Assembly: GCA_964441455.1 (NCBI GenBank)
Contig: CAYTUX010000282.1
Span: 1 to 48,298, forward strand
Direction: 5' to 3'
Origin: an uncultured Victivallales bacterium
GTDB lineage: Bacteria; Verrucomicrobiota; Kiritimatiellia; JAQICX01
Length of the DNA: 48,298 nt
Every line of letters starts with the position of its first letter. The first letter of the stretch is position 1. The notes below the pieces were generated by a model. It was not told where the DNA came from. It ran no database searches and saw only the letters and a list, made by a program, of their open reading frames with translations. Shown piece by piece: positions 1 through 42,873 of this stretch. The position numbers were made by a program, and so were the translations under genes.

Positions 1-240
1 TTCTAATGCGGACGCCGAGGACGTATTAGCTCCTGCCCTGTTTAGGGGAGGTGTCCGAGACACGACAAAGGAAGTGAGGCTGGAGCCTGCGACAGCAATA
101 AAAAGTAGTGTAATGTCCTACCGAGGACGGAGGGGTTCTTCCTCCCAAGTAAACCTTGCATATCAGTGTTAAATTGCAAGTTTACCCCGGGAGGGTCATC
201 GTCCCCGATGACTAAAATTAGGAAGAAACTGTAGGGATAC
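1..240. ncRNA. GC-rich structured element, copy A (cut by the window edge); paralogue of 40289-40484
   Basis: ORF-free GC-rich island. The reverse complement of 115-210 aligns with 40289-40390. Shared nested helices and a conserved hairpin loop. Strand unresolved. Confidence 0.45.
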
Positions 241-342
241 AAAAAAGTGGCTGTATCTCCTTGATTTATAAATAATTAGATGCAGGCTAGCCTGCAAACT
301 TTTGCCATAACCACTACAAAAACTACGAGAACAAGGAAAAAT

Positions 343-7464: not shown

Positions 7465-7923
7465 ATGGAAAACATATCAATATTTGATATTGGAAGCAAC
7501 ATTGAAAATATTAATGCAGAAGAAATTGTTGCTGAAGTACAGAAAAAAGTTGAGCAAAATATGGAAAATGGTGTTTATCAGGATCCAACTATTGCTGCAG
7601 CCGAAAAACATAGACTTATAAATGTAAAAGGCATTGAAGATTTTACTCCCTATTTTATGTCTTGTCTAAAAGCATCCATCAATATTGATATCAATGATTT
7701 TGAAATTGTCGAAAAACGATCAAAATTCGGAAAAATACTTGTTAAATTTAAAACTTTGATATGGAAAAGCCTTAAATTTTATACCTATCGGATGTGGTCT
7801 CAACAAAACTATGTTAATTCCTTACTGCTTTCAGCTCTTGAAACTGTTGAACAGAATCATAGAATACAAATTGACGTTTTGCAGAAAAGAATTGAAGAGC
7901 TGGAAAAATCTAAAGATAATTAA
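7465..7923 (+). CDS. hypothetical coiled-coil protein of the kind found next to polysaccharide glycosyl/methyltransferase genes
   Basis: Start lies 2 nt after the MBL stop, with a GAGGAG RBS. The C-terminal segment KFYTYRMWSQQNYVNSLL...IEELEK resembles conserved accessory ORFs in glycan clusters, judged from memory. Confidence 0.6.
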   Translation: MENISIFDIGSNIENINAEEIVAEVQKKVEQNMENGVYQDPTIAAAEKHRLINVKGIEDFTPYFMSCLKASINIDINDFEIVEKRSKFGKILVKFKTLIWKSLKFYTYRMWSQQNYVNSLLLSALETVEQNHRIQIDVLQKRIEELEKSKDN

Positions 7924-7984
7924 GAATTAGTCTGATAGTTAGATGGCTGGTTAGGTTCGGAATTCGCAAAATGGGATACACATA

Positions 7985-8189
7985 GGTCGGTCTGCCCAGC
8001 TGTCAAACCCTGCGGGCAATATCTGCTGGCTGTGGCAGGCTTCGAAGTAAGTCCGGTCTCTGCTGAGACCAGCTACAGGTGCAGCAGACTGATCAATGTT
8101 TAATATGGTGATTAGCGTATTGTAGCCGAGGTCAGCCTGTCCAGCTGTCAAACCCTGCGGGGAATATTTGCTGGCTGTGGCAGACCTCG
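7985..8189 (+). promoter_or_regulatory. tandem pair of about 60-nt imperfect hairpins (7985-8044, 8127-8189) with a perfect small hairpin between them (8055-8070)
   Basis: The two units differ at 7 of 63 positions. The differences in the stem keep pairing only as G-U on the + strand. The second hairpin ends 6 nt before the AAGGA RBS of the GT4 gene. Confidence 0.55.
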
Positions 8190-32156: not shown

Positions 32157-32180
32157 ATTAAATTTCCTTTTTTCCTGTAC

Positions 32181-32291
32181 GGGCGACATTCTTGTCGCCC
32201 TTTTATCTTTCGGCAGACATTCTTGTCGCCCTTTTATCTTTCGGCCGACATTCTTGTCGCCCTTTTCTTGCGGGCGACAAGAATGTCGCCC
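32181..32291. repeat. array of four REP-like 20-nt palindromes: three direct copies with a 31-bp period, then one inverted copy
   Basis: GGGCGACATTCTTGTCGCCC at 32181. GGCAGACATTCTTGTCGCCC at 32212. GGCCGACATTCTTGTCGCCC at 32243. GGGCGACAAGAATGTCGCCC at 32272. The 11-nt linkers TTTTATCTTTC are identical. Confidence 0.85.
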
Positions 32292-33257
32292 CTACGCAAT
32301 CCCAAAACAAAACCCCTTTTCAATTCTATACCCTCTGACAAATGCAGAGCCTTCCATCTTTTTTTTTCCTTCAGGTTGCACAAATTCAAGACTTACGCAA
32401 CCATTCCCTGTCTGCACGACCGGAGAACCATCATCTGTAAAAGATATTACAGTTCCAGGCTTAGCACCAGATAAATCAAATCCGCACACAATTAATGAAT
32501 TCCAAATCTTTAAATTCTGCTCTTTTCCGTTAATGACACACGGGGAAAAACAAACAGGCCATGAATTCATTCCCCGTATCTGATTATGCACTTCCTTAGC
32601 AGACTTACTCCAGTCAATGAGTCCGTCACTTTTTTTAAGCTTTGCTGCAAAAGTAACTAAATTATGATCTTGAGGAATTCTATCATTTGTTCCATCAAAA
32701 ATTTCTGACAATGTTTCAACAAGCAATCTACTTCCTGCACTACTTAAATTATCATGCAGTATTTCCGCTGTATCATTTTCCCCGACGGCAACCTTTGTCT
32801 GCGAGATGATATCGCCATCATCCATTTTTTCATTCATATACATTACTGTTACGCCACTGACGGTTTCACCTGCAAGCACAGCACGCTGTATCGGAGCTGC
32901 ACCACGATATTTTGGAAGCAGCGATGTATGAAGGTTTATACAACCAAACCTGGGAACATCAAGAATATCCGGTTTAATAATCTGTCCATAAGCAACAACA
33001 ACAATAATATCGGGATTGAGATCTTTAATCATCTCAATACTTTCAGGAGAGTTTACGCACTCGGGAGTCATTACATTCAGACCATTCTTCAAAGCCAAAA
33101 CTTTAACAGCCGACGGCATTAGTTTCAACTTACGACCAAATGGTCTGTCAGGTTGACTAATTACGCCAACTATCTCAAATTTACCGCAATCGATGATTGT
33201 CTTCAAAGACTCTGCCGCAATTTCCGGAGTACCCATAAATAATATTTTCTTTTTCAT
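32292..33257 (-). CDS. fmt: methionyl-tRNA formyltransferase
   Basis: FMGTPEIAA N-terminus and HTSLLPKYRGAAPIQ motif. Confidence 0.95.
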   Translation of the reverse strand: MKKKILFMGTPEIAAESLKTIIDCGKFEIVGVISQPDRPFGRKLKLMPSAVKVLALKNGLNVMTPECVNSPESIEMIKDLNPDIIVVVAYGQIIKPDILDVPRFGCINLHTSLLPKYRGAAPIQRAVLAGETVSGVTVMYMNEKMDDGDIISQTKVAVGENDTAEILHDNLSSAGSRLLVETLSEIFDGTNDRIPQDHNLVTFAAKLKKSDGLIDWSKSAKEVHNQIRGMNSWPVCFSPCVINGKEQNLKIWNSLIVCGFDLSGAKPGTVISFTDDGSPVVQTGNGCVSLEFVQPEGKKKMEGSAFVRGYRIEKGFCFGIA

Positions 33258-35206: not shown

Positions 35207-35221
35207 TCCCTTAAATTTTTC

Positions 35222-35249
35222 GTACGGGCGAGACATGTCTCGCCCCTAC
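35222..35249. repeat. REP-like palindrome GTAC-GGGCGAGACATGTCTCGCCC-CTAC
   Basis: Perfect 8-bp arms around CATG. Fills the yihY/helicase junction and reads MSRPY on both strands. Confidence 0.8.
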
Positions 35250-40165: not shown

Positions 40166-40288
40166 AATATTCCTCAAAATTTCAACATTTAAAAATCTTC
40201 TGAAATTTTACAAAAAAACATACATCAAGTCTATCCCTAAGTTGAAAAAGGAAGCTTTTACGTTGATTTGACTGTTGAATTGTTTTTC

Positions 40289-40484
40289 GGTTGCCGGGAA
40301 CGCCAACCCTCTCTATTAAAACTGCAATTTAACATTAGTCTGCAAGATTCATTAGGGAGGGATGCTGTCCCCGGCGTCCGAAGGTAACGCAACGATCTTC
40401 GTTGCAAGTACAAAACACCACCTAGCTTTGCTAACAACAATTCACAACTTGCCCCAACGCAGTTGGTGCCGCCAAGCAGTAACC
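40289..40484. ncRNA. GC-rich structured element, copy B (paralogue of 1-240)
   Basis: Helices GCCGGG/CCCGGC (40293-98/40370-75) and CCCTCTCT/AGGGAGGG (40307-14/40354-61). Conserved-loop hairpin at 40321-40350. Perfect 7-bp hairpin at 40389-40405. CCAAC-GCA-GTTGG at 40454-40466. Confidence 0.5.
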
Positions 40485-42774: not shown

Positions 42775-42814
42775 ATCTTTCCTGTTTATCAATTTCTAAA
42801 TTGTTTTTTTATAT

Positions 42815-42873
42815 GGGCGAGGAAGATCTAGCCCCTACATCTTAATGCAATTTGGGCGAGATGCATCTCACCC
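42815..42873. repeat. two REP-like palindromes of the GGGCGA...TCGCCC family
   Basis: GGGCGAGGAAGATCTAGCCC-CTAC at 42815-42838. GGGCGAGATGCATCTCACCC at 42854-42873. Confidence 0.7.

Follow-up and report, generated by a model that had tools for sequence, protein, structure and literature searches.

A probable truncated composite MITE upstream of murG in an uncultured Victivallales bacterium, and the placement of its family near Shine-Dalgarno sequences

The window, which is the whole stretch of DNA analysed here (48,298 nt), is contig C282 of MAG G000, an uncultured Victivallales bacterium with 298 contigs, 2.9 Mb, 87% completeness and a GC content of 37.3%. The gene murG is located at 343-1404 on the plus strand, as a 353-aa ORF. 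Upstream of it, the GC content of positions 1-240 is 0.50, compared with 0.30-0.44 in the remaining first 2 kb and 0.373 genome-wide, and the sole ORF in these 240 nt is an open-ended frame of 56 aa. This is in agreement with an earlier note on the same DNA, which had described a GC-rich region without a credible ORF. The mirror copy reported there is also real: the arms at 141-184 and 40317-40360 are complementary at 77% with the repeat finder, and one profile matched at full length both at 121-217 on the plus strand (copy A, E = 4.8e-18) and at 40285-40380 on the minus strand (copy B, E = 4.5e-23), showing that A and B belong to the same family. Copy B is a stand-alone member of the repeat M3, without surrounding MITE TIRs. 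The string described as common to both copies was found as well, with GGACGCCGAGGAC at 10-22 resembling GGACGCCGGGGAC on the minus strand of copy B. Copies A and B share one structured element, and copy A is cut by the contig end in the probable 5' region of murG, as had been proposed. The element also reaches to the right, up to position 312 and not only to 240.

The window copy begins with the last 6 nt (TTCTAA) of a MITE left arm at 1-6 on the plus strand, which were recognized from sister copies in contigs C99, C208, C145, C214, C110 and C131. The missing part of this arm lies past the contig end and amounts to about 45 nt, with the left TIR GGTTCTGTCAAAAGTTTT among them; the sister copies read ...GGTWCTGTCAAAAGTTTTATGAAAGAATATGAAAACAAGAAGTTTTCTAA there, and then the similarity ends. 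All further parts are on the plus strand. The 5' half and the loop of the M3 hairpin H1 (TGCGGACGCCGAGGACG) occupy 7-23, and are followed by two nested short repeats: M1 at 24-59, with the hairpin CTCC-TG-CCCT GTTT AGGG-GAGG and its flanks, and M2 at 60-120, which is 61 nt long and carries GGCTGGAGCC and GTAG...CTAC. The rest of the cargo M3, the core common to copy B, occupies 121-213, with CCTCCC at 141-146, the central hairpin AAACCTTGCA...TGCAAGTTT at 151-183, GGGAGGG at 189-195 and the hairpin H3 (GGTCATCG-TCCC-CGATGAC) at 194-212. The MITE right arm, in its variant B, is located at 214-294 and aligns with the right arms of C53, C145, C252 and others; it contains a hairpin GGGATAC...GTATCTCC, the conserved CTTGATTTA at 259-267 and the hairpin GCAGGCTAGCCTGC at 282-295. 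A degenerate right TIR, CAAACTTTTGCCATAACC, follows at 295-312 and is identical to AAAACTTTTGACAGAACC at 15 of 18 positions; the TIR scan found no other TIR-like site in C282. The flank at 313-337 reads ACTACAAA-A-ACTACGAG-AACA-AGGA, with the Shine-Dalgarno (SD) sequence AGGA at 334-337.

An internal repeat of CCGAGGACG had been noticed earlier, and its second copy is indeed at 121-129, but the first one lies at 15-23 and not at 16-24. Uninterrupted M3 copies read GCGGACGCCGAGGACGGCATCCCTCCC across H1. In the window copy, M1 and M2 break into H1 behind CCGAGGACG, and H1 then continues with the second CCGAGGACG, so the duplication of this string is explained by the interruption of M3.

Window 1-312 is very probably the right-hand ~87% of a composite non-coding MITE of about 360 nt, and not an RNA switch specific for murG. 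In sister copies the backbone is composed of a left arm of about 60 nt and a right arm of about 100 nt, each ending in the 18-bp TIR GGTTCTGTCAAAAGTTTT. The canonical copy at C208:3065-3362 (298 nt) starts with GGTTCTGTCAAAAGTTTT and ends with AAAACTTTTGACAGAACC, has a perfect TIR (18/18), and is flanked by the direct repeat (TSD) AAATAGAA. There were 97 TIR-like sites in the genome with three or fewer mismatches. Among the 24 inward-facing TIR pairs in G000, the 8-bp TSD was perfect in seven and had one mismatch in three, and it was perfect in 14 of 17 TIR pairs from JGI metagenome contigs, where the elements were 199-550 nt long. These comprised 21 independent contigs, picked by a right-arm pattern with 25 specified bases. 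Element sizes ranged overall from 148 to 705 nt, and the interiors had short spurious ORFs only, with no transposase ORF. The earlier note had allowed that the extended sequence might prove to be part of a mobile element, and the TIRs and TSDs of the sister copies show that it is.

The composite structure is clear from the size classes. The 252-254-nt forms consist of the left arm, an uninterrupted M3 and the right arm; the 323-nt form (L062) adds M1, and the window type adds M2 too. In an alignment of 14 copies, M1 and M2 were present or absent as whole blocks within an otherwise collinear unit of about 300 nt. M1 is absent from the 252-254-nt forms; M2 is absent from C99, C208, C185, C145 and C86 and present in C53, C214 and C82. 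Both also occur elsewhere: the M1 block (window 8-65, core 29-59) had about 70 genome matches at 90-100% identity, and the M2 block (window 60-121) about 25 separate copies in G000. The other blastn match blocks were M3 (window 122-240) and the right end (window 233-298). Same-genome matches to the region numbered 170 by blastn and 135 by nhmmer, many of them at contig ends, while a genome search with window 1-300 gave 51 BLAST places, compared with the 170 of the separate blastn. The composite itself has multiplied, since window-type copies (C53, C214, C82 and others) share 85-97% identity with the window copy.

The left end of the window copy is off the contig and its own right TIR has three mismatches; its membership in the MITE family rests on the 95-97% identical sister copies in C53 and C214. 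The element runs past position 1, as the earlier note had stated: the sister copies are similar for a further ~45-55 nt to the left and then the similarity stops, and the missing part is therefore probably short. The contig end falls inside a repeat, which explains the assembly break at position 1. No other assembly encoding exactly this MurG was found for extending the contig to the left, and the unique right-flank junction was absent from the JGI metagenome contigs. Matching left arms were found at the ends of C110 and C214, but the left flanks there (CATTAAAT and AATAAATT) differ from the window's right flank ACTACAAA, and no join was proved.

Nucleotide-precise, orientation-specific placement relative to the SD was seen in three independent data sets. 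In G000, 26 of 27 right arms faced a start codon 17-27 nt away. AGG started exactly 12 nt past the right terminus in 22 G000 copies, and at 11-15 nt in 30, while such a spacing was found at none of the 33 left ends. The congener had AGG at 12 nt in 8 of 11 cases, and most of the 21 independent metagenome contigs also had the 12-nt spacing. When 64 unique flanks were pooled, AGG was at 12 nt in 35 and at 11-14 nt in 46, with the flank logo N8-NNNA-AGGA. These 12 nt, always in one orientation, consist of the 8-bp TSD (flank positions 1-8) and 4 nt more, which places the end of the staggered cut 4 nt ahead of AGGA.

For two copies, C208:3065-3362 and L011, the target lay within the last codons of an upstream dihydroorotase-like gene, the stop of which was 4-5 nt before the next ATG; the gene now ends in the element-encoded ...RRFCQKFYERI and a stop. 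The orthologous dihydroorotase-like junction of the congener has a diverged element at the identical 12-nt distance. Repeated use of one site was also seen. Two tandem MITEs in L064 (JGI contig Ga0209414_1001816) share the TSD AAACAAAT, present three times, and the end of C110 has tandem MITEs around a shared target, TGACAGAACC-CATTAAAT-GGTACTGTCA. In both tandem arrangements a single 8-bp target has been entered again.

The spacing in the window copy is atypical, with the SD 21 nt from the terminus, against 12 in the family, and ACTACAAA-A-ACTACGAG between. In these 9 additional nt the 8-bp target seems to be present a second time in diverged form, and the flank may be the trace of an SD-proximal tandem copy that has been lost.

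We read the 12-nt rule as a probable target-site specificity: the MITE family would insert one-way, with its right end 12 nt upstream of the SD AGGA. A DDE transposase would then read the ribosome-binding site (RBS) as its target, in one orientation, with the duplicated 8 bp ending 4 nt before AGGA and with re-entry possible; we give this proposal about an even chance. From such one-way insertion at SD-12 we infer that the link with murG is a target-site preference and not a function specific for murG.

The main rival to targeting is that the 12-nt spacing comes from function. The right arm would be a portable expression module, which could be an outward promoter, an RNA processing site or a translation enhancer, and the present copies would be the survivors of selection at a working distance from the SD. 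We consider this unlikely. The TIR does have a perfect TTGACA with its 3' end 17 nt from AGGA, and ends of the IS6 family commonly form hybrid promoters (PMC7986276), but the sequence 17 nt past TTGACA is AGGANN and not a -10 hexamer, and no sigma-70-type promoter was called inside the element. Neither a sigma-70 promoter in the element nor a hybrid TTGACA/-10 promoter at the junction was supported by the consensus scans and the flank logo. No other part of the MITE is as conserved as the right arm, which is found also as solo units, and most MITE copies lie between co-directional genes, where polarity would matter; both points fit a module, but a spread of +/-1 nt over more than 60 independent sites would be hard to reach via selection on random insertions, and the same is true of re-insertion into the identical 8 bp in L064.

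Turning to the enzyme behind the preferred reading of targeted insertion, the MITE must be moved in trans, because it encodes nothing. The 8-bp TSDs together with the TIRs are the signature of a DDE transposase, and we infer from the termini a mobiliser of the IS6 or ISL3 type. The TIR GGTTCTGTCAAAAG matches the IS6/IS26 consensus (GGTTCTGTTGCAAA) exactly in positions 1-8 and 12-13, including the invariant G1, G2 and G7; like IS6/IS26 ends it begins with GG, has G7 flanked by T and holds an outward -35-like hexamer. This TIR consensus and an 8-bp duplication are known for IS6/IS26 (PMC6807381, PMC7986276), an A at TIR position 10 occurs in IS6 clade III (PMC6807381), and IS6 elements have MITE derivatives and an outward -35 in the TIR (PMC6807381, PMC7986276, PMC8477213). 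Two MITEs, with lengths of 227 and 336 bp, appear in the review of IS6 (PMC7986276, PMC6807381). The present elements are matched with IS6/IS26 (or ISL3) MITEs in being small (199-550 nt), non-coding and multi-copy with an 8-bp duplication. On the other hand, the TIR does not follow the IS6/IS26 consensus in positions 9-11 and 14, and no IS6 transposase was present in the searched genomes: IS6 transposase (PF13610, DDE_Tnp_IS240) had no match in G000, an 87%-complete MAG, and in the congener G001, also an incomplete MAG, the PF13610 match was weak and atypical (36 bits, in a 514-aa ORF only).

An intact ISL3 element was found at C115:417-1760, with a 410-aa transposase (PF01610 at 259 bits), the inverted repeat GGCTCTGTCACGG (ends GGCTCTGTCACGGTTTGTGTGGATG) and the 8-bp TSD ATAATAAT. 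The MITE TIR shares 9 of its first 10 nt (GGYTCTGTCA) with this element, and the likeness ends after these 10 nt. The C115 element is not SD-proximal and sits in a repeat-rich intergenic region. No autonomous element with the MITE TIRs was found in G000 (87% complete), the congener or the metagenome contigs, and the TIR pairs 0.6-3 kb apart in G000 and the metagenome loci enclose repeats or ordinary genes, with no transposase. Two further features separate the family from IS6 and ISL3 MITEs: palindromic repeats of unrelated sequence make up its interior, and one-way insertion 12 nt upstream of an SD is undescribed for either family in the searchable papers. Right after the 18-bp TIR, the left arm of L053, L069 and G000 C208 reads ATGAAAGAATATGAAAA(A)CAAGAAAATTAA, and this mini-ORF may be a remnant of the start of the parent transposase.

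The cargo M3 is a palindromic, REPIN-like repeat of about 96 nt. An iterated nhmmer profile found it at 127 or more distinct loci in G000, 60 of them near full length, either stand-alone or in mosaics; copy B is among them. Its order is H1, CCCTCCCG, central hairpin, CGGGAGGG and H3. H1 is GGACGCCG-AGGA-CGGCATCC and is followed by CCTCCCG; the centre is a variable hairpin around AATGTTA or AATATTA, after which come CGGGAGG and H3, GTTGGCG-TCCC-CGCCGAC. H1 is an inverted copy of H3, with compensatory stem variants, so the unit is a REPIN-like doublet. When helix pairs were counted in 21 diverse copies against slid-partner controls, standard pairs filled 88% of cells (33-49% in the controls), pairs with both sides changed numbered 11 (1-5 in the controls), and the covariation score was 0.234 (at most 0.099 in the controls). 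One mismatch recurs: on the plus strand it is C.A in H1 and G.U in H3, and on the minus strand the two are exchanged, which agrees better with an inverted doublet of DNA than with an RNA read in one direction.

The great majority of M3 loci lie between genes, and 73 of 127 are near contig edges. Loci off the contig edges showed no clear departure from the shares of intergenic DNA among tandem, divergent and convergent gene contexts. The exact pattern of the M3 centre had no match outside G000 in a scan of one genome per GTDB species, and the family is therefore narrow. Among 30 relatives searched, the modules were present in one congener only, and two genomes from other families of the class had a 35-nt match resembling the left arm.

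Because M3 resembles a REPIN, the whole region could be regarded as a REP/BIME mosaic moved by a RAYT or IS200-like Y1 transposase and not by a DDE enzyme. We regard this as improbable for the whole, while it may hold for the cargo alone. HUH/Y1 transposition gives no target duplication, but the outer element has TIRs and 8-bp TSDs, unlike such products. G000 has 20 Y1_Tnp matches, and two of these are true RAYTs (NF047646, 119 bits), at C74:~300-830 and C173:~7630-8100. Their flanks are arrays of GTAG-type REP hairpins in inverted doublets, the spacer of which, CTTGCACTTTAATGTTAGTTTGCAG (CTTGCA.TTTAATGTTAG.TTGCAG), closely matches the M3 centre, and the modular mosaic build is also like that of BIMEs. 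However, no GT(A/G)G adjoins the M3 hairpins, and none of the Y1 genes examined (RAYT and IS200-like) has M3-type hairpins on its flanks; the flanks carry other REP types, and these genes were rejected as M3 mobilisers. Compared with the REP, REPIN and BIME elements of E. coli and Pseudomonas, M3 is similar in being an inverted doublet of ~20-nt hairpins with a conserved mismatch around a spacer, in its hundreds of intergenic copies, in its mosaics with other motifs and in the presence of RAYT genes in the genome; it differs in lacking GT(A/G)G and a RAYT flanked by M3 hairpins, and in riding within a TIR/TSD transposon.

Separately, a protein of 360-385 aa was observed in at least eight copies of two subfamilies (C110, C119, C77, C258, C16, C225, C166 and C233). 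Its N-terminus is weakly RAYT/Y1-like (52-55 bits, below the cut-off), no REP-type hairpins were seen on its flanks, and it may be another mobile gene family.

That the region is a cis-regulatory leader, a riboswitch or attenuator controlling murG, with copy B controlling the etf operon, is scarcely credible, for although it is GC-rich, lies directly upstream of murG, has covarying helices and folds strongly (RNA fold of 1-320, z = -3.3), its family occupies at least 127 loci beside unrelated genes, is missing upstream of the congener murG, has no Rfam match, shows no called terminator or U-run on the murG strand, favours neither strand as RNA, since the arms are inverted copies whose C.A/G.U mismatch swaps with the strand, and has TIRs and TSDs that show transposition. 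In Rfam, the whole window had no match at gathering score and 1-400 had no meaningful one at E <= 10, and ARAGORN found no tRNA or tmRNA, so known RNAs such as rnpB, ssrA and riboswitches were set aside. The hairpin GCAGG-CTAG-CCTGC at 282-295 and the AAACTTTTG after it are present as the earlier note described, 48 nt before the murG ATG at 343, but they are not an attenuator. Because the right TIR of the window is 295-312, they correspond to the inner right arm and the TIR, a conserved part of the MITE; the same hairpin variant adjoins the TIR also in at least seven other copies (C53, C192, C259, C268, C286, C261 and C284), and no U-run follows on the murG strand. A false riboswitch candidate is thus removed from the annotation.

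The closest public MurG is that of 'Kiritimatiellae bacterium GH20' (75% identity). Upstream of the GH20 murG there is an 880-nt repeat-rich region facing a divergent gltB, without M3 and without a MITE end, and a promoter-like TTGACT-16-TACAAT lies about 50 nt before its ATG. The MITE is before murG in G000 and absent before murG in the congener; the exact empty site was not alignable. In G000 the folded element is probably carried in the leader of the murG transcript, or it parts murG from its former promoter, and any effect on murG expression would be a by-product.

Pneumococcal BOX and Neisseria Correia elements have known side effects on the expression of neighbouring genes (PMC3049150). 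The present family is like them in its modular or nested and highly base-paired build and in its insertion within or between co-transcribed genes; it is unlike them in sequence, host and target site. The target duplicated by Correia elements is TA, and no fixed spacing to the RBS is reported for BOX or Correia. The REP2 of Neisseria is known as a dispersed repeat always lying just 5' of coding sequences in one orientation; the RBS is part of REP2, and TIRs or TSDs are not known for it. In the present family, by contrast, the RBS is host sequence outside the element. In the searchable literature we found no description of SD-anchored target choice, the only paper returned on this being a survey of pneumococcal repeats, and a full-text search gave no relevant description of Kiritimatiellae repeats.

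A truncated nested mobile element is ordinary when taken alone, and the SD-anchored, orientation-locked placement is the part worth following up. If the RBS is truly the target, the family would form a class of RBS-homing transposons. Such elements would settle at operon junctions, where the gene downstream survives the insertion, and would carry structured repeats as cargo into 5' leaders genome-wide. If the placement is targeting, it would also offer a natural system for a DDE transposase reading an asymmetric short motif, a route for selfish DNA to spread inside essential operons, and a source of lineage-specific structured 5' leaders, which may be co-opted for regulation.

The repeat set is unusually rich across the whole clade. 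The murG-gltB intergenic region of the congener (L017, 900-1400) is packed with further short repeats, GTCATGAGTCATGAGTCGTGAGTC and CCGTGTTTATCAGTGTCAATCCGTGGCTAAG among them, and relatives of these also flank the ISL3 element of C115. Another hairpin repeat, GGGCGACA...TGTCGCCC followed by a T-run, occurs in the window at 32172-32295, 35217-35249 and 42806-42838, with four copies in tandem and others single; it also adjoins the MITE copy at C145, and it looks terminator-like.
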